From Chloroflexota bacterium (GTDB lineage: Bacteria > Chloroflexota > Dehalococcoidia > UBA2247 > JAUWOP01): DNA of 64,000 nucleotides. Shown piece after piece: positions 17,229-53,849 of the stretch; the stretch's first letter is position 1, and each line of letters begins with the position of its first letter. The notes below the pieces were generated by a model. That model had not been told where the DNA came from. It made no database searches and was given only the letters and a program-made list of their open reading frames with translations. The stretch is from contig JAUWOP010000002.1 of the NCBI GenBank assembly GCA_030612045.1, positions 5,894 to 69,893 on the forward strand. The letters are read 5' to 3'. The position numbers and the translations under genes are program-made.

Positions 17229-17311
17229 GCCGAAGTGGCGGAATGGCAGACGCGCTACGTTCAGGGCGTAGTGCCCTCAGGGGCATGGGAGTTCAAGTCT
17301 CCCCTTCGGCA
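17229..17311 (+). tRNA. tRNA-Leu (anticodon CAG)
   Basis: Manual cloverleaf. Acceptor GCCGAAG/CTTCGGC, anticodon loop TTCAGGG, long variable arm (type II), T-loop GTTCAAGTC. CCA is not encoded. Confidence 0.8.
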
Positions 17312-17331
17312 TTAAATCAAGGGCTAAGGGA

Positions 17332-17405
17332 GCGCTTGTAGCTCAGTAGGATAGAGCGCAGCCCTGCGGAGGCTGAGGTCGTGGGTTCGAGACCCACCAA
17401 GCGCG
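17332..17405 (+). tRNA. tRNA-Arg (anticodon GCG by manual fold)
   Basis: Acceptor GCGCTTG/CAAGCGC, anticodon stem CAGCC/GGCTG, loop CTGCGGA with U33 and G37, T-loop GTTCGAGAC. Confidence 0.65.
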
Positions 17406-17410
17406 CTAGA

Positions 17411-17483
17411 GGGCGATTAGCTCAGCGGTGAGAGCACCAGTTTTACACACTGGGGGTCAGAGGTTCAAATCCTCTATCGCCCA
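17411..17483 (+). tRNA. tRNA-Val (anticodon TAC)
   Basis: Acceptor GGGCGAT/ATCGCCC, anticodon loop TTTACAC, T-loop GTTCAAATC. Confidence 0.8.
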
Positions 17484-27957: not shown

Positions 27958-29406
27958 CTATTCTTCCTCAATGTCCTGGTAGATGCTGCTGAACTGGGTC
28001 AGGGCAGATTCGAGGTTGTCGGCAATTTCCCGGGCGAGGATGTCTGGCTCTGGTAAGTTTGCGGAATCCTCAAGGCTTTCATCCTTTAGCCAGAATATGT
28101 CGAGGTTTACCTTGTCCCGTTGCATCAACTCCTCATAAGTGAAAGCTCTAAATCTCTCGGCTTCTTTTCTTTCGTGTCGATTCTGGGGATTGTAGCAGCG
28201 GACAAAATCTAGCAGGTCATCATCTCGCAAGGTATTGGTTTTAAGAGTAAAGTGCATATTGGTTCTAAAATCATATATCCAGAGCTTGTCTGTCCATGGC
28301 TTTTCGCTGCCCGGCTTGCGGTCAAAGAAGAGGACATTTGCCTTGACGCCAGGGCGGTAGAATACACCTGTGGGCAACCTCAAAAGAGTATGAACATCAC
28401 ACTCCTGAAGTAGTTTCATTCTCACTGTCTCACCGGCGCCACCTTCAAAGAGGACATTGTCAGGCACGACTATAGCAGCCCGACCATTAGTCTTGAGGAG
28501 TGTTTTCACATGCTGGAGGAAATTCAATTGTTTATTAGATGTGGTCGCCGAGAAGTCTGGACGTTCATAGACCTGTGATTCCTTATCAGCCTTTCCCTCA
28601 CCATTAACTATGGTGTAGCTGCTTTTCTTGCCGAAGGGCGGATTGGTGAGTACCATATCAAAACGCTCACCGGGGTCAGCTATGAGGCTATCCCCGCTTT
28701 CAACAGGAGTCTCAATCCCATGTAGATAGAGATTCATCACACAGAGTCTGACCACACCATCAACAATATCCTTCCCTCTGAAAGCGTTGAATTTAAGGAA
28801 TTCCTTCTGGTCTATGTCCAGGTTATTGTGTTTGGGGATATAGTCATAGGCTGCCAGCAAAAAGCCACCTGTGCCACAGGCAGGGTCGCAAATAATCATT
28901 TCCGGCTCAGGTCTCATAGCCTCAACAATAGCTTTGATGAGAGCCCTAGGGGTGAAATACTGCCCAGCGCCGCTCTTAACATCCTCGGCGTTCTTCTGCA
29001 GAAGACCCTCATATATCTCCCCTTTGACATCGACATCCAGCCCAACCCAGGTTTCGGCATTGATAAGTTCAATAAGGCGCTTGAGCTTGGCTGGGTCTTG
29101 AATCCTGCTTTGAGATTTGCGAAAGATAATGCCGAGCATACCGCTCTCTTTGCTCAGGGACTCAAGGATAAGACGGTAATGAGCCTCCAGGGCGGCTCCA
29201 TCCCTCTCCCGCAGGCTTAGCCAATCAAAGCCCATGGGAATGGTTGAGGGCTTGTTGAAAGGATGCCTGGTCTGTTCATCAGCCATCTTCAGAAACAGCA
29301 GGTAAGTTAGCTGTTCCACATAGTCGCCATAGCTTACACCGTCATCACGAAGCACATGGCAGTAGTTCCACACTTTTGAGACAATTGTCGATGATTCATT
29401 GGGCAT
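27958..29406 (-). CDS. hsdM: type I restriction-modification system methyltransferase subunit
   Basis: HsdM N-terminal domain and N6-adenine MTase motif DMVLTNPPFGKK (NPPF). Confidence 0.9.
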   Translation of the reverse strand: MPNESSTIVSKVWNYCHVLRDDGVSYGDYVEQLTYLLFLKMADEQTRHPFNKPSTIPMGFDWLSLRERDGAALEAHYRLILESLSKESGMLGIIFRKSQSRIQDPAKLKRLIELINAETWVGLDVDVKGEIYEGLLQKNAEDVKSGAGQYFTPRALIKAIVEAMRPEPEMIICDPACGTGGFLLAAYDYIPKHNNLDIDQKEFLKFNAFRGKDIVDGVVRLCVMNLYLHGIETPVESGDSLIADPGERFDMVLTNPPFGKKSSYTIVNGEGKADKESQVYERPDFSATTSNKQLNFLQHVKTLLKTNGRAAIVVPDNVLFEGGAGETVRMKLLQECDVHTLLRLPTGVFYRPGVKANVLFFDRKPGSEKPWTDKLWIYDFRTNMHFTLKTNTLRDDDLLDFVRCYNPQNRHERKEAERFRAFTYEELMQRDKVNLDIFWLKDESLEDSANLPEPDILAREIADNLESALTQFSSIYQDIEEE

Positions 29407-29879
29407 TAGCCACTATTTCCCCTCAAACTTTGATCTATATACTCAACTTTCAAAAACACACCATTAAGGTGGTCAAAATCATGGTCTGTTGTTAAAAGCA
29501 AAGCGTTAATCACCGAACCTGTAGCAGCAATCCATATATCATTCTTACCCATATTTCGTGAAGATACCCCTTGAAGTAGTTTTTTTGAGGGATGTTTGCC
29601 CTGGCTATACGCATCAATTTCTGCATACTTCTCCAATATCTGATGGTCACCAATGTCAGCGAAAGGGATTTTTCCTAAGATGTCCCCGATCTTTCGCTTT
29701 TTTTCTTCACTCCACCCAAATTGTAGAGATACAGAATAGATTTCCCCAACTGTTACCACAGAAATAAGTGCAATATTGGGTGGCATGGATACCCCAAAAC
29801 GCTTCTCTACATACTCGGCGTAGCCTGCCCCTCGCACATAGCCCAGAATGATGCCCGTATCTAGGAGGTAAGTAGTCAT
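29406..29879 (-). CDS. PIN-domain nuclease (VapC-like)
   Basis: LLDTGIIL at the N-terminus and LLTTDHDF near the C-terminus give the PIN acidic residues. 157 aa. Confidence 0.7.
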   Translation of the reverse strand: MTTYLLDTGIILGYVRGAGYAEYVEKRFGVSMPPNIALISVVTVGEIYSVSLQFGWSEEKKRKIGDILGKIPFADIGDHQILEKYAEIDAYSQGKHPSKKLLQGVSSRNMGKNDIWIAATGSVINALLLTTDHDFDHLNGVFLKVEYIDQSLRGNSG

Positions 29880-30835
29880 AAGGTTTCTACGGATGCCTGC
29901 CTCAATACAGAAAGAATTTCGTCAATTGATTCTTCTCCTGGCCACTGTCCCCAAATCTCCGTCAGCGGGCTTTTGGTGCCTTGCTTTCTTTTCAATTCCT
30001 CGATTAACCTGTGAGGTGACTTTGATTCCGTAATATTCTGGAATATCTCCTCTCCAACCTCAAATGGTTTGATTATTTGTGCTTCAATAAAGCGCACCTT
30101 ACGGGAGGCATTGAAGTGAGCCGTCCCTTTAATCGTGACCTTCTTCCCCCAGAGACCTCTCATTTTCCCCTCTGTAATTAAGGGTGAGTCTGCCCTCCCA
30201 CGTACCTTTTGACCGTCTTCTAACTCAAGTTGGAACTGCCTCCGAGCATGTTCAATCAAATCGAATAAACCTGCAACGACAATAGCGTGAGACTGCGGTG
30301 TTTCTGTCTCCATGTGGCTTATCTTCTCTAACTCTTCGCGCCCTATCTTGAAATTATCCCTTTCCCTGATCTTGGAATTTACCTCAAGCTCACTCATGTA
30401 TTTCTTAAGAGGAGATCTGAAAGAGAGCAGAGCGTTTAACACTCCTCGGTCATAGTATTCGCTTTCCAATTGCTCGGAGGTTGCATCTGATACTGACCTG
30501 GAAAGCAAGGACATCGCAGTATCTTCCGGATTGGGCAGTGTATACCAAAGGGTCTGCTGCTGAACCTGTTCGGGGGCTGATTCTGCCAAAGTCGGCGCTT
30601 CAATCTCCAGTACTGTTGAGCCTTTACTGATTCCGGCAATCGTGAATTCAAGGGATTTACTTAACCATTCTGGATTCTTTCCTCTTTTCACGCTCCTGCC
30701 TTCGATCGAAAGGCGTAGTGCTCGTTCGCATCCCTGCAAAAGTGTATCAGAGATATCCCTGAGAGCTCTCAGGGGGATAGTGCCTTCTGGCGTTTTAAGC
30801 CCGGTAATTCTAATCGTGTAATGGATGCCGTTCAC
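29876..30835 (-). CDS. hypothetical protein (319 aa), immediately upstream of and overlapping the PIN gene
   Basis: Long ORF with good codon usage and no recognisable motif. Overlaps the PIN ORF by 4 nt (29876-29879). Confidence 0.5.
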   Translation of the reverse strand: MNGIHYTIRITGLKTPEGTIPLRALRDISDTLLQGCERALRLSIEGRSVKRGKNPEWLSKSLEFTIAGISKGSTVLEIEAPTLAESAPEQVQQQTLWYTLPNPEDTAMSLLSRSVSDATSEQLESEYYDRGVLNALLSFRSPLKKYMSELEVNSKIRERDNFKIGREELEKISHMETETPQSHAIVVAGLFDLIEHARRQFQLELEDGQKVRGRADSPLITEGKMRGLWGKKVTIKGTAHFNASRKVRFIEAQIIKPFEVGEEIFQNITESKSPHRLIEELKRKQGTKSPLTEIWGQWPGEESIDEILSVLRQASVETL

Positions 30836-31015: not shown

Positions 31016-32495
31016 TACCCTCCCTTATCCTTTCCAGCAGCTTGTCAGCAGGTTCGTCGCTGGGGTCTTGAGGAACCAGTTTACCCTCAAAGGCTCTCTT
31101 TAGAATACTCTGGCGCAATCTTACCGACTGCTTGAGGCTCTGGTCAACGGCTTTTCCTATCTCATCAGCTACCGAAAGGCGGCGCTCGATTTCCTCAACG
31201 ATTTTGTGTTGTTCGGTGAATGAGGATAATGGAAGTGGAAGGATTCGCAGGTGTTCGAGAGGAATGAACTTCTGTGTCGTTCCCTTCGAAAGTTTCCCCT
31301 TTTCCAATATCTCATTGAATGTCCAGCTTGCCAACCAAAACTTGAGGTATTTTGACCTGAGAAAGGATTGATTCTTCTTAAATAACCCCACGTTTTTAAT
31401 ACTAAAGAGCCTGTCTGTCTGAACTACTACAGGATTTCCCACCGTTCCTATCATTGCAAAGAGTATGTCCCCATTCTCAACCCCAGAACGTACACTAATT
31501 TTTTTGTGGTCTTCGATGCTAATATTCTTGGTCGTTGTGAAGTCTAAGCCATCTTCTTTGAGGTTTTTTGATGTCACCAACGGGATTCCCTCTTCAACAT
31601 ACCTAGGGGTATCGTGTGTACCATCTCTTACAGAAGAACAAACATCACTTGTTATCGTCCACACCCACCCCTCTGGCAAATCGGGCAAATCGGATGTATC
31701 CAATGACGGAAGTTCTTTGTATTTGCCCTGGGCATTTTTTGGGTGTTCTCTCTTGATGCGCTCCAGGAGCGCGGAGGCGGGCTCCAGTTCTCCCTTGTGG
31801 TCCTCTCGCCACTCCTGCGTCAGTTTTCCCTGGAAGGCATCCCTCAAAACTGCCTGGCGGTAGCGTTTTAACTGAGCCTTTATTTTCTTCAGCGCCGCTA
31901 CCCCGGCATCCAGCCTGGTGAAAAGCCCCTCAATCCTGGCAACGATGCGGTGCTGCTCAGGGAGGGGCGGGAGAGGGATGGGAATTTGGTGCATATAATG
32001 AACTGGCACCCTTAATTGACCTGCAGAGCCTGTCATATTTCTTTGGGCATCCCTTCTGAGGTCTTCTCGTATCAAAAAGAAGAAGAGCAACTTCCTTGGA
32101 AATGATTCAGGCAATCTGATAACATGGAACTCAGTTGAACCGAAACCGATACCGTTTTTCAAACCATGAGCTATTGCCACTTTCCCGTTTTCCATACAAG
32201 GTGTAATTTTGGCAAAAAGTAAGTCACCCTCTATGAATGGTGTATACCCTTTTTTTACTTCTGATAATCTCCTCGTAAAGAATAAATTGAGATGTCCTGT
32301 TAATTCCTCAACGCATTTCATCGGTAGAAATGCAACTTCTGTGTCGTCTGTGAGATATTCGCCTGTAAATTTCGGATTGATTTCTGCAATCTCCCCCAAC
32401 CTCATCCACACCCACCCCTTAGGCAATTGACGAGTGTTCACTCCTTCATCTCCTACGCTGCTAGCTCTTGAATATGTTCGTCCCGGCAACTCCAC
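30978..32495 (-). CDS. hsdS: type I restriction-modification system specificity subunit
   Basis: Two target-recognition domains, each followed by a conserved PLPPLPEQHRIV / LPLPLSSFTEQHKIV coiled-coil repeat. The true start may be the internal MRLGEIAEI (~32405). Confidence 0.85.
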   Translation of the reverse strand: MELPGRTYSRASSVGDEGVNTRQLPKGWVWMRLGEIAEINPKFTGEYLTDDTEVAFLPMKCVEELTGHLNLFFTRRLSEVKKGYTPFIEGDLLFAKITPCMENGKVAIAHGLKNGIGFGSTEFHVIRLPESFPRKLLFFFLIREDLRRDAQRNMTGSAGQLRVPVHYMHQIPIPLPPLPEQHRIVARIEGLFTRLDAGVAALKKIKAQLKRYRQAVLRDAFQGKLTQEWREDHKGELEPASALLERIKREHPKNAQGKYKELPSLDTSDLPDLPEGWVWTITSDVCSSVRDGTHDTPRYVEEGIPLVTSKNLKEDGLDFTTTKNISIEDHKKISVRSGVENGDILFAMIGTVGNPVVVQTDRLFSIKNVGLFKKNQSFLRSKYLKFWLASWTFNEILEKGKLSKGTTQKFIPLEHLRILPLPLSSFTEQHKIVEEIERRLSVADEIGKAVDQSLKQSVRLRQSILKRAFEGKLVPQDPSDEPADKLLERIREGNRSPALMSLRGA

Positions 32496-33220
32496 AGGAT
32501 ATCTTTCACATCATATCGACGAAGGGCATTGATAAGGTCTGGATTTAACGGGCGTTCGGTATCATTTAGGACCGCATAGGCAGTAGATTCGGGCAGTCTT
32601 ACCTTTTTGGTATCAGTCCATGCAAAGATAAGCGTTGTGATACTCTGACGGTCAGGCCGATTAATGGCTCTGAGTACTCTTTCAGGTTTTACACGGGAGG
32701 CAGGAATTACGAAGTCGAAAGAATTGTCCAAGCCGCTTTTTCCGGTGAATTTGACTGAAGGGGTAAAGCGAATATCATGGGCACGCAGATATGTCTCAAC
32801 ATCTTCTCGAAAAATACTCATCACCATTGGGGCAGCCATCACAAAGAGGTCATTTATTGCGAGCATGGCTTGAATCAGGTTGTGTTTCTTCTGCGGAAAG
32901 TTATCAGGGCGTGCCTCTACAATAAGCTCCTCACCCTGAAGACGAACTCCAAAGCCATTTAAAACAGCATTAAGCATCTGCCGTCTCTTCTCCGTCGTGA
33001 ACTCACATCCACTCAAGCGGAGGTCTCGGATAATGTAGCCATCGTCTGTGAGGGTAAATCCCTCTTTAGACCGCTTGATATATATCTGTAGATAGTCATT
33101 GTGACGGTCAACAAAGGGAGTGGTAATCTCACAAACACCATCTATATCCTGAATACTCATCTTTTGACCAAGCCATCTAATATAGACTTGAACAAGATCA
33201 CTGCACTCATTTGAAATCAT
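32453..33220 (-). CDS. hypothetical protein (255 aa) embedded between hsdR and hsdS
   Basis: ORF with no recognisable catalytic motif. Its start overlaps the upstream ORF stop (ATGA, 33217-33220). Confidence 0.5.
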   Translation of the reverse strand: MISNECSDLVQVYIRWLGQKMSIQDIDGVCEITTPFVDRHNDYLQIYIKRSKEGFTLTDDGYIIRDLRLSGCEFTTEKRRQMLNAVLNGFGVRLQGEELIVEARPDNFPQKKHNLIQAMLAINDLFVMAAPMVMSIFREDVETYLRAHDIRFTPSVKFTGKSGLDNSFDFVIPASRVKPERVLRAINRPDRQSITTLIFAWTDTKKVRLPESTAYAVLNDTERPLNPDLINALRRYDVKDILWSCRDEHIQELAA

Positions 33221-33714
33221 AGCAACCTCCTTTGAATCAAAGGCTGTTCAATAACATTACAAAATCGAAAGAAGTCCTCAAGAGTTGAAAACAGATCGTT
33301 TGTTTGGGGGAACTTATTGCTTGGTGCTGGAATTGCCCACTTATCCATAAATCCTTCCACATATAAGTGAAGATGAGGGGTTGGTAAGGTGACACCATTA
33401 TAAGGTTCGAGGAAAGAAAGTGGCACTGCCTCAACTTCTGGATTCGGGTGAGGGGAACCATCTACATCCAACCGCACAAGGATGAATGTGCCTTGATACC
33501 GTTCTTGATATGAGCATTTTGTCAGTCGAATTTGACCTCTGTTTACATCTATTAGGAAAGTCTCTATCTCATCAGTTGAAACAATGGGAATGACTAAAGA
33601 GCTCCCTGGGTAGGGGAAGAAATAGTTCTCGTTTCTGGCTCTTTTTTTTGGCATCTTTATTAAGAAATCTGCTTCACTCTGCGAAGGCATTCTGCTCCTT
33701 CCTAATTTGCTCAA
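33217..33714 (-). CDS. hypothetical protein (165 aa) embedded between hsdR and hsdS
   Basis: ORF starting 7 nt after the hsdR stop, translationally coupled to the next ORF. Confidence 0.45.
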   Translation of the reverse strand: MSKLGRSRMPSQSEADFLIKMPKKRARNENYFFPYPGSSLVIPIVSTDEIETFLIDVNRGQIRLTKCSYQERYQGTFILVRLDVDGSPHPNPEVEAVPLSFLEPYNGVTLPTPHLHLYVEGFMDKWAIPAPSNKFPQTNDLFSTLEDFFRFCNVIEQPLIQRRLL

Positions 33715-33720
33715 TTTGCT

Positions 33721-36468
33721 TCATGCTACCAGCACCTTATTCAGCTCTTCTAGAATACTGTCCAGCTCATGTTCGAAGAGATTGTATGCCTTTATTGCTC
33801 CACCCTTCCCAGCAAATGGCGTAAGCTCAAAGTGGTCTATGCTGATGCTTAAAGAAGCAGCGATGTGGTATTTTATCATCTCCAGCCACTCCATCTGCTC
33901 TGGGGTAAATTCTCGTCCTAAGCTCGCCTGCTCGGAAATCCATTCATTGAATCGCTTATCTACTGTCTCAGAGAAGGGTTCCAGCACATCAGTTTCCCCT
34001 ACAGCAAAGCGTATGAGTGAGATGATATTGGTTAGGAGTTTCTGGGTTCCAGCGTCCCTGACCTTGGAGCTCTCCAAATGTTCATAAGCCTGCCACAATA
34101 GCTCAGGTGTAAGATTATAAGGTGGCTTTTTGATAGCACTGGCAAGCTGCTTTATCTCCTGGTAGGTCAAACGGCGCTTGCTGTAAGGCTTACTATAAAT
34201 CACCTGCAAAGCGGTAAGCTCGTCCTTGTTCTCCTCTATGAATTTGTGAAAGGTATCAACGATGGTTCGAGCCTTTTCTTTCGCCTGAGCATCAAAGCCA
34301 GCAAAAATTAGCTTGTCCTGACTCACGGTATCAATAACCTGCTCACTTTCTCTCTTGAGGTCAATGAGCATATCACGCAGTTTAGGATTATCAAAGGGAC
34401 TGCAAGCAATTGTAGTCAGTTCATTACTAGCTTTCTTAACCTGTTCCTCTGTGGGTGCTTCTGTGTTGAAGAGCTCTTTCGCCTTATCTATTTGCTTGTC
34501 CGGGTCAACGGCGTCCAGCAAGCTATTGGTGAGCTGTTTTGGAGATATACCCCCTGTGGCACTTTGGATTTGCTGGCGGTCTTCTTCCTCAATCTCCTTA
34601 TCCAGTTGAGCGAGTCTTCCTGCCAGAGAAGTGAGCATGTCCTCATCTCTATTACCCAGAGCAACGGACATAAGCAGCTTATCGAAGGGGAGACTCTTGT
34701 TCCTTTCCAGAGGTTGGGAGTCTTGTTTCTCATTCTCGCACACGCCGACGGCATCCACGATTACGAAATTTGTCTTGTGAGATGCATCCGGGGTAACGGC
34801 GTTAAAATCCGTGGGCAGGATTGTCCTGCTGCCGCGTCCTTTCATCTGCTCAAACAGCAGCCGAGATTTAACATCTCTCATAAAGATGATGCACTCCAGA
34901 GGTCTAATATCGGTCCCGGTAGCAATCATATCCACTGTCACCGCGATGCGGGGATGATACGAGTTACGAAAGCTGGTAATCAGGTCCTCGGGCTTCTCGG
35001 TCTTGTAGGTTATCTTCTTACAGAGTTCATTTCCCTTACCGAATTCCTCCCTCACAATATGGACAATATCCTCAGCATGGGAATCGCTCTTGGCAAAGAT
35101 TAGGGTTTTGGGGACCTCAGTCCTGCCGGGGAATATCTCGGTAAAGAGTTTCTCCTTGAAGGTTTTGACCACTGTTCTTATCTGGTCTGGAGCAACTATG
35201 CTGCGGTCGAGTTGCTCTGGGGGGTAATCGAGAGCCTCATCCAACTGCTCCCAGCGGATTTGCCTGGTGAGCTTGTTTCGCTTATCTATATAATAGTCTG
35301 CTTTTATGGTGCTTCCCTCTTTGGTAATCTTTGTCTGGATGAGGTAAACATCGTAGCCTACATTAACGCCATCTGCCACAGCCCGCTCGTGGCTGTATTC
35401 CATAACCAGGTTCTGATTGAAAAAGCCCAGGGTTTGCTTTGATGGAGTTGCGGTGAGTCCGATAATAAAGGCATCAAAATACTCCAGCACCTGACGCCAG
35501 AGGTGATATATTGAGCGGTGACATTCATCGGTGATGATGAAGTCAAAGGTCTCAATGGGGATAGCGGGGTTATAGGAGATTTCTTTCGGTGGAAGAACTC
35601 CCAGTGGCATGCTGGGGAGAGACTGTTCCTCAAGCTCGGCATCAAAGTCTGGCTCTCCCTTGAGCATGGAATAGAGCCGCTGTATGGTGGTGATACAAAC
35701 TCGACTTACTGGGTCCAGGGTATTAGAGGTAACATGCTGGATATTATAGAGCTCAGTAAATTTCCTGCCGTCATCGGGTGTATCATATTGCTGGAACTCC
35801 CTTCTTGTTTGGCGGCCCAGGTTACTCCTATCAACAAGGAAGAGAACCCTTTTAGCATTGGCGAACTTTATCAGACGGTAAACAGAGCTCACGGCGGCAT
35901 AGGTCTTACCAGTTCCCGAGGTCATCTGGATAAGCGCTCGCGGCCTTTCCCCTGCAAAGGATTCCTCAAGATTTCCAATCGCCTCAATTTGGCAATCCCT
36001 CAATCTGTCAGTTTTTAGCGGAGGCATAGTTTTGAGTCTGGCTCTGAGAGTGTCCTGCTGAGTTAGCCATTCATTAAGCGTTTCGGGACGATGAAAGCTA
36101 AACACCCTTCGAGAGCGGGGTGCTGGGTCTCTTAAATCTCTGAAGGAGGTTTCTGTGCCTGTGCTCTCATAAACAAAGTGAAGAGGCTCCTGGACATGGG
36201 GGAGATTTTCAGGGGAAGCTGTTGAGTATTTTCCAGACTGTTCAGCTACACCACTTAAGGTAGTACCGACTGGTTTAGCCTCCACAACCCCAACAGCTTT
36301 TCTGTCAACAAAAAGGACATAATCAGCCGTTCCAGATTTCAGGGGAAATTCACGGACGGCTACTCCTGGAGAAGCTCCGAGATTCAGTTGCCGCAGGTCC
36401 TGAACAGCCCAACCGGCAGTCTCCAGCATCTGGTCAATCCTTTGTCTTGCCTTTTCCTCTGGTTTCAT
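33721..36468 (-). CDS. hsdR: type I restriction enzyme R subunit (helicase-nuclease)
   Basis: N-terminal nuclease domain, SF2 helicase motifs MTSGTGKT (Walker A) and DECHRS (DEAH), and a C-terminal domain. 915 aa. Confidence 0.9.
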   Translation of the reverse strand: MKPEEKARQRIDQMLETAGWAVQDLRQLNLGASPGVAVREFPLKSGTADYVLFVDRKAVGVVEAKPVGTTLSGVAEQSGKYSTASPENLPHVQEPLHFVYESTGTETSFRDLRDPAPRSRRVFSFHRPETLNEWLTQQDTLRARLKTMPPLKTDRLRDCQIEAIGNLEESFAGERPRALIQMTSGTGKTYAAVSSVYRLIKFANAKRVLFLVDRSNLGRQTRREFQQYDTPDDGRKFTELYNIQHVTSNTLDPVSRVCITTIQRLYSMLKGEPDFDAELEEQSLPSMPLGVLPPKEISYNPAIPIETFDFIITDECHRSIYHLWRQVLEYFDAFIIGLTATPSKQTLGFFNQNLVMEYSHERAVADGVNVGYDVYLIQTKITKEGSTIKADYYIDKRNKLTRQIRWEQLDEALDYPPEQLDRSIVAPDQIRTVVKTFKEKLFTEIFPGRTEVPKTLIFAKSDSHAEDIVHIVREEFGKGNELCKKITYKTEKPEDLITSFRNSYHPRIAVTVDMIATGTDIRPLECIIFMRDVKSRLLFEQMKGRGSRTILPTDFNAVTPDASHKTNFVIVDAVGVCENEKQDSQPLERNKSLPFDKLLMSVALGNRDEDMLTSLAGRLAQLDKEIEEEDRQQIQSATGGISPKQLTNSLLDAVDPDKQIDKAKELFNTEAPTEEQVKKASNELTTIACSPFDNPKLRDMLIDLKRESEQVIDTVSQDKLIFAGFDAQAKEKARTIVDTFHKFIEENKDELTALQVIYSKPYSKRRLTYQEIKQLASAIKKPPYNLTPELLWQAYEHLESSKVRDAGTQKLLTNIISLIRFAVGETDVLEPFSETVDKRFNEWISEQASLGREFTPEQMEWLEMIKYHIAASLSISIDHFELTPFAGKGGAIKAYNLFEHELDSILEELNKVLVA

Positions 36469-36639
36469 ACAGCTATAGCTCTAGGGAGATAAGTTCGGAT
36501 AGGACTATTTCCCACATATAATAGCACACAAAAGCTCACCTTGTATTGAAAGAGACTGTCAATAGTATTTATTACTAAATTATCGGAATACGATAAGTTA
36601 GGTATTGACATATTTCATATAGCGGATTACAATGTAAAT

Positions 36640-36939
36640 GTGGAGGTAATATTTGCTACTGAAGATTTAGACCGTTTGGAAGTAGATGGGTCTTTTACGG
36701 CTGGATTTAACCAAACGTTAGTAAAAGCATACCGCAATAAAATCAATATTATCAGGCAAGCTGTTGATGAAAGGCTCTTTTACGCTATTAAATCTCTTCA
36801 CTTTGAGAAGCTGGAAGGTAAACGAAAACATCAGCACTCTATACGCTTAAACAATAAATATAGCCTGATTGTCGAATTGGTCGAACGCAAACCGGAAAAC
36901 AAAGCCGTTAGGATAGTAGAAATCACAGATTATCATTAG
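36640..36939 (+). CDS. higB: HigB-like (RelE/ParE superfamily) toxin, GTG start
   Basis: The KSLHFEKLEGKRKHQHSIRLNNKYSLIVEL motif is typical of the HigB/plasmid-maintenance-killer family. The toxin gene precedes the antitoxin-like gene, as in hig loci. Confidence 0.7.
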   Translation: MEVIFATEDLDRLEVDGSFTAGFNQTLVKAYRNKINIIRQAVDERLFYAIKSLHFEKLEGKRKHQHSIRLNNKYSLIVELVERKPENKAVRIVEITDYH

Positions 36940-36957
36940 AGAAAGGAGGAATCTGAC

Positions 36958-38106
36958 ATGATGACTGCTATGAAGGAGAGAATACCGGCCGAAGGCTTCC
37001 TGCCTGGAGATTTAATCAAGGGGGAGTTGAAGGAAAGGGGTTGGACACAAGAGGACTTAGCAGAAATACTAGGGCGTACTACTAGTGCCGTAAATGAGAT
37101 AATTACTGGCAGAAGAGGTATTACGGTTGATACTGCAAAGGGTCTAGGAGAAGCGCTTGGAACTGGGGCACAGTTTTGGCTTAACATGGAATCAGCTTAT
37201 CGCTTGTCTTTGGAAAGAACTAGGCCGGAATCTGTATCTCGCAAGGCAGTTTTGTACGAAGCAGCACCAATTCGTGCCATGATAAAGAGAAATTGGATTG
37301 AATCCTCGACAAATATTGAAGTTCTGGAGCAAAGGCTCCGTGAATTTTTCGGAACTTCGGATTTGTCTCAAATTCCGCGTTTGAACTGTATGACCAGAAA
37401 GTCTACAGAGGAACTTACACCAGCACAAAGAGCCTGGCTATTTCGAGCAAAAAATCTTGCTATGGCTGTTCATGCAGGAAAATACACAAAAAGTCGTCTG
37501 AATATGGCATTGGAACGATTGAAGGATATGAGAGCTAACGAGGCAGATATTAGGCTGATACCTAAGGTCTTAGCCGATGCTGGTATAAGGTTGCTTATTA
37601 TTGAACCTTTTCCTCAATCTAAGATAGATGGTGCTAGTTTTTGGGTCAATGGGTCACCAGTCATAGCATTATCGCTTAGGTATGATAGAATAGATTCTTT
37701 TTGGCATACGTTAATGCATGAGATAGGACATGTAAAGAACGAAGATGGATTAATTGACAACTGTATGATTCTGGATACCGATTTGCTTGATGAATACAAT
37801 GATGTTAAACCCTACGAAAGAGCGGCGGATGAATTTGCGGTTAATTTCTTAGTTCCACAAAAAGAATTAAACGATTTTATAGCTCGTATTCAACCAATAT
37901 ATTCTAAGTCCAAAATCGTAGGCTTTGCGAACAGGATAAAAGTTCATCCGGGCATAGTGATAGGACAATTACATCATCGAGGTAAGGAACGAGGTGGTCT
38001 TGATTATTCCCATAGTCGTGAGATGCTGGTTAAGGTTAGACATCTTATTACAAGAGCAGCGACGACCGATGGATACGGACAAATATTGTCTTTGAATCTA
38101 AGTTGA
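36958..38106 (+). CDS. HigA-like HTH-XRE domain fused to an ImmA/IrrE-family zinc metallopeptidase domain
   Basis: N-terminal HTH (KERGWTQEDLAEILGRTTSAVNEIITG). C-terminal region with HEIGHV (HExxH) and a downstream Glu, typical of COG2856/ImmA. 382 aa. Confidence 0.7.
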   Translation: MMTAMKERIPAEGFLPGDLIKGELKERGWTQEDLAEILGRTTSAVNEIITGRRGITVDTAKGLGEALGTGAQFWLNMESAYRLSLERTRPESVSRKAVLYEAAPIRAMIKRNWIESSTNIEVLEQRLREFFGTSDLSQIPRLNCMTRKSTEELTPAQRAWLFRAKNLAMAVHAGKYTKSRLNMALERLKDMRANEADIRLIPKVLADAGIRLLIIEPFPQSKIDGASFWVNGSPVIALSLRYDRIDSFWHTLMHEIGHVKNEDGLIDNCMILDTDLLDEYNDVKPYERAADEFAVNFLVPQKELNDFIARIQPIYSKSKIVGFANRIKVHPGIVIGQLHHRGKERGGLDYSHSREMLVKVRHLITRAATTDGYGQILSLNLS

Positions 38107-38115
38107 GGTAAGAGT

Positions 38116-38574
38116 ATGACTTACAATGAACAATTACAGAGGCTTGTGAACAAATACATCGAAGCTGGCGAAATATGGCCTGCAACCTCGCATGAATTGG
38201 CTGCTTGGGCTTTGAATAATAAGTTGTGGGCACCCCAAAAGAGTGAAGTTTTAAATATATGTGCAGAACAACTAGCTCGTGCTATGCGAGAAGAATATAT
38301 AGTCGACCCGCAAGGTCGCAAGGTAAGATCGAAGCATGCTGCTAGAATCAAACAGGCAGTCTTATGGGATGATATTAGAACAGCGAGTCGTGAACACATG
38401 CAGATAGCATTTCAGCAGAGAAGGCAGCAAATAGTTGGTGATTGCCACCAGCTCAAATTGGACGTAGACAGCTACAATGAAAATAAGAGTGCTGGCATAC
38501 CAATCCAGATGGTATTTGATTTTACTTTCGATTTGATTGAAATGGAGAAGAAGCCAGAACTAGCCAAAGCCTAA
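38116..38574 (+). CDS. hypothetical protein (152 aa) directly downstream of the HTH-peptidase gene
   Basis: ORF 10 nt after the upstream stop, likely co-transcribed. No recognisable motif. Confidence 0.4.
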   Translation: MTYNEQLQRLVNKYIEAGEIWPATSHELAAWALNNKLWAPQKSEVLNICAEQLARAMREEYIVDPQGRKVRSKHAARIKQAVLWDDIRTASREHMQIAFQQRRQQIVGDCHQLKLDVDSYNENKSAGIPIQMVFDFTFDLIEMEKKPELAKA

Positions 38575-38611: not shown

Positions 38612-38851
38612 TTAGCTTATTTCTTTGCGTTGCTCGGGTGTTAGCTTCTCAGTCCTAGCTTTACCACCATTCAATCCCCCAAGGTGCCCTAATACCACAG
38701 GGTCAAATTTCTTTTCTTTATCCGTGTTGACTTGCTCTGATTCAGTTTTACTTTGCCCTGTAGCTTCTTGTACTACACGGAAGGCTGTAACGCTGAAGTC
38801 ATGCTCTTTCCTCTTCTTTTTCTTCTCTACCATACTTAAATGGTAAATCAT
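38612..38851 (-). CDS. small basic hypothetical protein
   Basis: Lys-rich N-terminus and a GHLGGLNGGKARTEKLTPEQRKEI C-terminal motif. Weak call. Confidence 0.3.
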   Translation of the reverse strand: MIYHLSMVEKKKKRKEHDFSVTAFRVVQEATGQSKTESEQVNTDKEKKFDPVVLGHLGGLNGGKARTEKLTPEQRKEIS

Positions 38852-39220: not shown

Positions 39221-40534
39221 ATGCCATTATATAAAGCACCACGAGGCACACAAGACATCCTCCCATCAGAGCAGCCTTACTGGAGATTTATAACCCAGAA
39301 GGCAGAGGCGCTATGCCAGCTTTATGGTTATAAGCGTATCGATACTCCAGTGTTTGAAGAAACAAGGCTGTTTAGCCGAAGTATAGGTGAGGGCACCGAC
39401 ATCGTGGAAAAGGAGATGTATACATTCACCGACCAGGGAAAAACTATGATAACCCTCCGCCCCGAGGGTACAGCACCAGTCTGTCGTGCCTACCTCGAAC
39501 ATGGATTGCATAACGCTCCTCAACCAGTGAGAGTATACTATCTTACCTCTATATTTAGATATGAGAGGCCACAGTCGGGACGATACCGCCAACATCAGCA
39601 GTTTGGCTGTGAAGCCCTGGGGGTTGCCGACCCTGCGCTGGATGCAGAAATCATTGACCTGGTATGGCAATTCTACATCTCGGTAGGACTAAGAGACCTT
39701 ACCCTGCACCTTAATAGTATTGGTTGTCCTGACTGCCGTCCAAACTACCTGCAGGCTCTCAAGCATCACTACTCACAGCAAACTGGTGTCCTGTGTCAGG
39801 ACTGTAAGGTCAGATTGGAAAGAAACCCCCTGCGTCTACTAGATTGTAAGAATCCTTCATGTCAGGAGATTATTCACAGCGCTCCTAAAATTACCGATTT
39901 TCTCTGTGAGCAGTGCGCTGAGCATTTCCAGCAGGTGAAGGAATACCTTCAGGATATTGACATCCCCTTTACCCTTAACCCCTATCTGGTACGAGGTCTG
40001 GATTATTATGCCAGGACAGTTTTTGAGGTTCAACCGGGTAGATTGACCGACGTCGGTCAACCTACCCTCTCTCAGCAGAGTACTATTGGAGGGGGAGGAC
40101 GCTATGACCTTCTGATTGAAGAGCTAGGGGGGAATGCTACTCCGGCAGTGGGTTTTGCTACAGGTCTGGAGAGGATTATTCTCAATCTAAAGAAGCAGAA
40201 CATTGTCGTACCACCGATTCCTGAGCCGATGGTTTATGTCGCTTATACTGGAGAGGAAGGTAAGCATGATGCTGTAAAAATAGCAGCAGTACTGCGTCGT
40301 GCGGGAATAGGGGCTATCCTCTCTATGGGTAAGAGAAGTCTCAAGGCACAACTGAAACAGGCAAATGTGCTGGGTGCAAGCCAAGCCATAATCATAGGTG
40401 AAGATGAGCAACGCCGTGGGATGATAGTGTTGCGTGACCTCATCGAGGGGAAGCAAAGAGAGGTCCCTTACGAAGGAATAGCGGAGGCGGTCTTGCCGCC
40501 AATTGATAGCTATCAGAGATCAGCTATTAGCTAA
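39221..40534 (+). CDS. hisS: histidine--tRNA ligase
   Basis: Class II aaRS motifs (RPEGTAP, FRYERPQSGRYRQHQQFG) and a C-terminal anticodon-binding domain. Confidence 0.9.
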   Translation: MPLYKAPRGTQDILPSEQPYWRFITQKAEALCQLYGYKRIDTPVFEETRLFSRSIGEGTDIVEKEMYTFTDQGKTMITLRPEGTAPVCRAYLEHGLHNAPQPVRVYYLTSIFRYERPQSGRYRQHQQFGCEALGVADPALDAEIIDLVWQFYISVGLRDLTLHLNSIGCPDCRPNYLQALKHHYSQQTGVLCQDCKVRLERNPLRLLDCKNPSCQEIIHSAPKITDFLCEQCAEHFQQVKEYLQDIDIPFTLNPYLVRGLDYYARTVFEVQPGRLTDVGQPTLSQQSTIGGGGRYDLLIEELGGNATPAVGFATGLERIILNLKKQNIVVPPIPEPMVYVAYTGEEGKHDAVKIAAVLRRAGIGAILSMGKRSLKAQLKQANVLGASQAIIIGEDEQRRGMIVLRDLIEGKQREVPYEGIAEAVLPPIDSYQRSAIS

Positions 40535-53776: not shown

Positions 53777-53849
53777 GGGGATATAGCTCAGTTGGGAGAG
53801 CGCTGCGTTCGCATCGCAGAGGTTGGGGGTTCGAATCCCCCTATCTCCA
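53777..53849 (+). tRNA. tRNA-Ala (anticodon CGC)
   Basis: Acceptor GGGGATA/TATCTCC with a G3:U70 wobble pair (the Ala identity element). Anticodon loop TTCGCAT, T-loop GTTCGAATC. Confidence 0.8.

Follow-up and report, generated by a model that had tools for sequence, protein, structure and literature searches.

Fusions of an Xre-type helix-turn-helix (HTH) domain with a Zn protease of COG2856, encoded in operons with RelE-family toxins, were described by Makarova, Wolf and Koonin in 2009 (PMC2701414), who predicted such "three-component" toxin-antitoxin systems (with RelE or PIN toxins) in phages, plasmids and chromosomes and proposed the Xre antitoxin or repressor as the target of the protease (PMC2701414). 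A member of this class, PD-λ-2 of Escherichia coli ECOR42, was later recovered by functional selection as a defence system of the abortive-infection type (Vassallo et al. 2022, PMC9519451). Three genes make up the system, a HigB-like one (A), one encoding a HigA-type HTH with a peptidase (B) and a third (C), whose products were assigned by HHpred to PF09907, PF06114 and the P4 Beta_protein family PF14350 (residues 5-358), respectively (PMC9519451). Unexpectedly, B of PD-λ-2 proved toxic when expressed alone, A relieved this toxicity, and C was dispensable for neutralisation and required for defence (PMC9519451); our literature search for the mechanism of PD-λ-2 found nothing beyond that report. 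The present analysis concerns an operon of three genes, likewise called A, B and C, at positions 36640-38574 of a 64,000-nucleotide (nt) stretch of contig JAUWOP010000002.1 from a Chloroflexota bacterium of the class Dehalococcoidia. The whole stretch is referred to as the window, and positions are counted from its first letter.

On balance, and with moderate confidence, this operon is read here as a mobile three-gene module derived from a toxin-antitoxin (TA) system and of the same kind as PD-λ-2, in which release of the toxin by the peptidase would abort infection. Judged from the sequences, the architecture itself is already known, and the new elements are a toxin from another HigB family, a third protein that is widespread but undescribed, and a fourth gene present at some of the loci. 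An earlier note on this DNA had considered the coupling of a RelE-family toxin to an HTH-peptidase protein unusual, but RelE/HigB genes with Xre-M78 fusions form a known and widespread class, one member of which has been tested experimentally. The note's suggestion that a protease regulates a toxin or a defence switch fits both PD-λ-2 (PMC9519451) and the 2009 prediction (PMC2701414), but the experiments on PD-λ-2 did not reveal the simple logic of a HigB toxin held by a HigA antitoxin.

Predicted toxin and antitoxin-protease fusion

Gene A (36640-36939, + strand) begins with GTG and encodes a 99-residue HigB/GraT-type toxin of the RelE fold, with the C-terminal residues D97-Y98-H99. It matches Pfam HigB-like_toxin (PF05015, 29.6 bits; gathering cut-off 27), as do 31 of the 32 A-family members from syntenic loci, and a profile of the family matches GraT (6f8s_B, E = 1.6e-13) and Proteus HigB (4mct_B, E = 1.7e-6) in the Protein Data Bank (PDB). 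The hidden Markov model (HMM) check run on the earlier proposal of a HigB-like toxin as first gene thus upholds it. Within the A family the terminal Asp and His are kept in at least 90% of members and the Tyr in most; their counterparts in Proteus HigB, Asp90, Tyr91 and His92, are critical (PMC5027501). Retention of the catalytic D-Y-H suggests that A is most likely an active ribosome-dependent RNase.

Gene B (36958-38106, + strand) encodes a protein of 382 residues that joins a HigA-type HTH (residues 16-84, nt 37003-37209; HTH_3, 36.1 bits; TIGR02607 HigA, 51.4 bits, cut-off 47.7) through a helical linker (residues ~90-205) to an M78 metallopeptidase of the ImmA/IrrE/CapP-like kind (residues 213-329, nt 37594-37944; Peptidase_M78, 40.8 bits, cut-off 22). 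The earlier assignment of a fused HTH and COG2856 HExxH peptidase to the antitoxin position is therefore borne out by three models, and the N-terminus of B also has PDB sequence matches to HigA/GraA. The HExxH motif is H254-E255-I-G-H258 (HEIGH, nt 37717-37731, + strand) and the downstream Glu is E287, which, with the match to PF06114, gives B the features by which ImmA/IrrE proteins are recognised. H254, E255, H258 and E287 are invariant in 79 of 79 aligned relatives, which indicates that selection maintains the peptidase as a working enzyme. Among all library matches of B the strongest is to the PADLOC model PDLC03982 PD-Lambda-2_B (E = 2e-48, 163.7 bits), with residues 8-343 of B aligned to profile positions 52-378 of 402.

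Conserved third gene

Gene C (38116-38574, + strand) encodes a protein of 152 residues that starts with three helices, continues with a beta meander of four strands and a helix of 32 residues, and closes with short helices at the C-terminus. The earlier note had called it a co-oriented orphan; it is a co-oriented third gene, but not an orphan, having 1,728 homologues at E ≤ 1e-3 in a database clustered at 90%, many of them 65-91% identical. At 50% clustering there are 932 representatives, nearly all of them stand-alone proteins of 150-200 residues. The window copy and 33 family members have no match in Pfam, NCBIfam, PADLOC or PHROGs, a scan of the window copy against PADLOC to E ≤ 10 gave nothing relevant, and C has no sequence match in the PDB. 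Nor was any mention of a small third gene found in the literature. The possibilities that C is a short or degenerate Beta_protein, a SecB-like protein or a winged-helix protein were each considered and rejected, no support having been found for any of them.

The C-termini of the family were counted in alignment A2 (proteins P0001-P0381). An Ala-Ala C-terminus occurs in 73 of 350 full-length members (21%, versus ~1% expected from composition), in 22 of the 33 members of the syntenic genome set and in 13% of the 50% representatives; the final residue is Ala in 39% of the family, and the window copy ends in LAKA. Ala-Ala tails are reminiscent of the ssrA-type tails recognised by ClpXP. C may be a proteolytically labile component, the degron idea being only partly supported by these counts.

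In some carriers C is broken into fragments (L003:4208-4357 and L020:5121-5467, Thauera; L048:2394-2519) and A and B are intact. Thus, C can be lost without immediate loss of A-B, which fits a C protein that is unnecessary for neutralisation.

Conservation, synteny and co-variation

Relatives were collected by a scan with the B alignment, one genome per species, of which at least 543 were confirmed; the synteny counts cover the best 80 of these (37-49% identity to B, at least 15 phyla). Conservation of the three-gene arrangement had been set as the test by which the earlier proposal could fail, and the arrangement held: by tblastn and HMM searches an A homologue lies directly 5' of B in 71 of 79 assessable loci, and an intact C homologue directly 3' of B in 61 of the 74 with enough downstream sequence, with degraded remnants of C at two more of the 74. 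Look-ups anchored on C in long contigs found A-B-C in all three cases. Hundreds to thousands of homologues of each gene show that A, B and C are real genes and not chance open reading frames (ORFs).

Mobile elements that carry the triad include a Paraburkholderia plasmid, where a type I HsdR gene and an Abi gene adjoin it, and the temperate Achromobacter phage CF418P1, in which it lies 3' of the integrase gene; it is also present in a prophage-like immunity region of Telmatospirillum, and at one C-anchored locus it is adjoined by an MmeI-type enzyme. A Methylocapsa plasmid has annotated B and C genes next to Shedu, but no homologue of A was found there by tblastn. Cultured carriers of the operon include Pseudomonas arabinosi LT1P18 (L022), Paraburkholderia sp. 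FT54 (on a plasmid, L002) and Achromobacter phage CF418P1 (L087). On the evidence of gene order across these genomes, A-B-C is a real, conserved three-gene operon, spread over many phyla.

Pairwise divergence of A correlates much more closely with that of the HTH of B (Spearman 0.79) than with that of the linker (0.28) or the peptidase (0.22), and this tracking of the HTH fits a contact of the HigB-HigA type. A scan of 141 flanking ORFs found the nearest large neighbours of the 80 related loci to be mostly mobile-element or housekeeping genes, including IS1 transposases (9), integrases (5), other transposases and a relaxase. With neighbourhoods so heterogeneous, enrichment in defence islands is not demonstrated, a result that speaks neither for nor against a role in defence.

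Relationship to known systems

The comparison with PD-λ-2 was made through the PADLOC models and the HHpred tables of PMC9519451; no enterobacterial PD-λ-2 was among the results when plasmids and phages were searched at the protein level. In both systems the three genes point the same way and run from a RelE-fold HigB-like protein through a HigA-type HTH with M78 peptidase to an accessory gene, and their B proteins are homologous. The A proteins share the RelE fold but belong to different families (PF09907 in PD-λ-2, PF05015 here), and the P4 Beta_protein encoded by the third gene of PD-λ-2 (PF14350, ~360 residues) contrasts with the 152-residue C of an undescribed family and fold. The operon measures 2,625 bp there versus 1,935 bp here, and the PADLOC models for A and C do not detect the present locus. 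Since A and C lie outside the PD-λ-2 families, two of the three components do not belong to PD-λ-2 in the strict sense; judged by its predicted proteins and their order, the locus is nevertheless clearly the same kind of system.

Other described systems resemble the locus in part. As in HigBA, a RelE-fold HigB with its catalytic residues is encoded 5' of a HigA antitoxin with an Xre-type HTH; HigBA and GraTA, however, differ from the present operon in that B, at 382 residues, is not a single-domain antitoxin of ~100 residues in a two-gene system but carries some 300 additional residues with a metallopeptidase and is followed 3' by a third conserved gene. The systems delineated in 2009 comprise toxin, HTH and protease, with no conserved small extra gene like C. 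In ImmR/ImmA of the integrative and conjugative element (ICE) ICEBs1, DdrO/IrrE of Deinococcus and CapH/CapP of cyclic-oligonucleotide-based antiphage signalling systems (CBASS), the protease acts on an HTH repressor that is made as a protein of its own, whereas here the HigA-type HTH is fused to the protease, a putative RNase toxin is encoded in the same operon, and no separate gene for a cognate Xre repressor is present in A-B-C. RosmerTA (Millman et al. 2022) is likewise a TA system of defence, with a Zn-peptidase in its antitoxin RmrA, but its toxin is not HigB-like and it has no third gene. The PADLOC models of RmrA (best E = 3.3e-8) and CapP match B weakly and partially, the RmrA matches being ~40 orders of magnitude weaker than that of PD-λ-2_B, and neither RmrA nor RmrT is the best match at this locus.

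Proposed mechanism and alternatives

In the PD-λ-2-like reading, the HigA domain of B would bind and neutralise A in the uninfected cell, and the A-B complex would repress the operon at an inverted repeat beside the -35 box, with the peptidase of B kept quiet. Upon phage infection, a cue sensed by C or relayed through it would turn the peptidase on, and the peptidase would cut either B itself, in the linker or the HigA domain, or C, which might itself be the labile substrate instead of the carrier of the signal. Freed A would cut ribosome-bound mRNA, translation would stop and the infection would be aborted. C would stand in for the P4 Beta-like protein that is the third component of PD-λ-2, and because that component is needed for defence and not for neutralisation, C would set the specificity of the trigger. 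The setting in the window is one of defence, the operon being divergent from a type I restriction-modification (R-M) operon with embedded PADLOC candidates.

Several observations weigh against this reading. B is the only protein demonstrably homologous to its PD-λ-2 counterpart: none of the 32 A-family members matches PF09907 (HigB_toxin) or any PADLOC model, PD-Lambda-2_A included (the window copy was scanned to E ≤ 10), and none of the 33 C-family members matches PF14350 or PADLOC PD-Lambda-2_C. The toxicity of B alone in PD-λ-2 does not conform to a simple scheme in which B neutralises A, so that the toxin and antitoxin roles at the present locus are not settled. Divergence of C shows no clear preference for any domain of B (Spearman 0.36 for the HTH, 0.45 for the linker and 0.35 for the peptidase), and defence genes are only scattered among the neighbours of the related loci. 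The predicted promoter ends so close to the GTG of A that the mRNA would have little or no leader ahead of this start codon, an unusual arrangement. In addition, we infer toxicity, neutralisation, defence and proteolysis at this locus from sequence and not from experiment.

The module might instead be an ordinary addiction or stabilisation cassette of mobile DNA, acting by post-segregational killing and not dedicated to action against phages, with the peptidase and C doing no more than fine-tuning antitoxin turnover. Its location on plasmids and in prophages, the predominance of IS1 transposases, integrases, other transposases and a relaxase among its otherwise heterogeneous neighbours, and the bona fide HigB/HigA homology of A and the N-terminus of B all agree with such a cassette. 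A conserved third gene and an invariant peptidase site nonetheless exceed what addiction needs, several loci, the one in the window included, lie beside R-M, Shedu or Abi genes, and the closest characterised relative of B acts in phage defence; an addiction cassette is considered rather unlikely. The roles of A and B could also be the reverse of those proposed above, with the peptidase of B as a toxic effector acting on host or phage proteins, A mainly as its inhibitor, and C as a phage sensor that releases B. This is how PD-λ-2 behaves insofar as A rescues the toxicity of B and C is needed only for defence (PMC9519451), and the invariance of the peptidase catalytic residues is in keeping with it. 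The A family, however, retains the full D-Y-H and other residues of the active-site region, which would be unexpected in a protein that only inhibits, the divergence of A follows the HTH of B and not its peptidase, and the A proteins of the two systems fall in different Pfam families, so that the E. coli result may not transfer; such a reversal is judged distinctly improbable.

Two further alternatives concern C and the output of the locus. C, a small protein whose gene keeps strictly to the side of gene B, might be a chaperone or stabiliser of B, comparable to the SecB-like chaperones that serve HigA in toxin-antitoxin-chaperone (TAC) and CmdTAC systems; the TAC system of Mycobacterium tuberculosis has the order HigB-HigA-chaperone, equal to the order here. 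No support was found for a SecB-like C, and a tripartite system of this type is very unlikely. Finally, the locus might be a switch of the ImmR/ImmA or CapH/CapP type whose output is transcription of its neighbours (the R-M operon or a mobile element), the HigB-like gene being incidental. Across the 80 genomes the triad keeps A and C while its neighbours change completely, and in the window no ICE or prophage surrounds the locus, the operon being followed downstream by hisS at 39221; a switch of this kind is hardly credible.

Operon structure and genomic setting

The ORF list for 33-42 kb contains the three co-oriented ORFs exactly where the earlier note had placed them. The gaps are 18 nt between A and B and 9 nt between B and C, so that the close B-C spacing is correct and the 10 nt given for it is not. 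Motifs resembling Shine-Dalgarno sequences (GGAGG/GAGG) precede both B and C. The best sigma-70-like site in the region, a consensus match only, is TTGACA-17-TACAAT (36605-36633, + strand; 11 of 12 consensus matches), which ends 6 nt before the GTG of A. Abutting its -35 box is an inverted repeat with 11-nt arms that are 91% complementary, CTAAATTATCG N5 CGATAAGTTAG (36575-36601, no strand assigned), a candidate operator to which the HigA-type HTH of B might bind.

A, B and C share one reading frame, separated by single stop codons and the 18 and 9 nt between them. In a metagenomic relative, P0421 (489 residues, 70% identity to B), A and B are fused into one protein with PF05015, HTH and M78 domains.

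The R-M neighbourhood mentioned in the earlier note is present as described: type I hsdR (33721-36468, - strand) is divergent from A-B-C and is followed, in order, by a DUF6978 gene, a DUF1828/DUF1829 gene, hsdS, a gene for a 319-residue protein, a PIN gene and hsdM. The DUF6978 (165 residues) and DUF1828/DUF1829 (255 residues) genes between hsdR and hsdS (32453-33714, - strand) match the PADLOC candidates PDC-M24A (E = 2e-49) and PDC-M24B (E = 6e-105), respectively, and may be regarded as a candidate defence system nested in the type I R-M operon. Between hsdS and hsdM (29406-30835, - strand), the gene for a PIN-domain protein (157 residues) overlaps by 4 nt the upstream gene for the 319-residue protein, for which Pfam gave no match; together they resemble another TA-like pair embedded in the R-M operon.

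The G+C content is 41-43% across 36-39 kb, versus ~47-48% in the flanks, a drop that counts in favour of the reading preferred here. Of four tRNA genes in the window, three are clustered at 17229-17483 and one lies at 53777-53849 (+ strand); none adjoins the defence region at 28-39 kb, and thus no tRNA-linked integration site is evident. The locus is found again in an independent ENA metagenome assembly. The close homologues come from metagenome assemblies, and some of the more distant ones are labelled Dehalococcoidia.

A convergent fourth gene

Gene D (38612-38851, - strand; 79 residues) is convergent with C and is a possible linked fourth gene. It belongs to a family of small basic proteins (75-100 residues) with the motif GGKARAxKLTPEQRxEIAxxAAxARW, and has neither a Pfam hit on record nor a PDB sequence match. 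Homologues of D stand tail-to-tail with C in ~21 of 61 related loci, including the closest relatives of the window, and the two stop codons then usually overlap by 4 nt; they are located at L089:6460-6696, L090:6474-6740 and L001:4568-4819 (all - strand) and at ~20 further loci. The window copy, alone among 25 aligned homologues, lacks the C-terminal AxxAAxARWKK segment (the last ~13 residues) that is present in the other 24, because of an earlier stop codon.

A role for D as a specific fourth component was rejected as a general rule: the triad is present at only 17 of 75 D-anchored metagenome loci with a neighbourhood that could be judged, and elsewhere D lies beside varied genes, including large serine recombinases. 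D is possibly an accessory gene, rather than an established component of the module.

Implications for PD-λ-2-like systems

PD-λ-2 is among the least understood of the defence systems derived from TA modules. The branch to which the present locus belongs (the relatives confirmed above) is much larger and spans a wider range of taxa; it has only the protease-antitoxin core in common with PD-λ-2, and its third protein is a different, compact one. Because A and C of this branch match no PADLOC model, automated annotation of defence genes probably undercounts it.

A more tentative proposal, possible but doubtful, extends the PD-λ-2-like reading: the pair of HigB and HigA-M78 fusion would be a conserved "chassis" on which unrelated third genes, serving as infection sensors or specificity modules, are exchangeable. 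The C family, with an apparently new fold, at least 932 clusters and at least 15 phyla, would then mark a large PD-λ-2-like branch that current tools miss; its trigger, and perhaps the substrate of its protease, would differ from those of the E. coli system, and D would be an extra regulator in part of it. Set side by side, the two branches would allow a direct test of what the third component does, and would show whether or not a fixed effector core is combined with exchangeable sensors.

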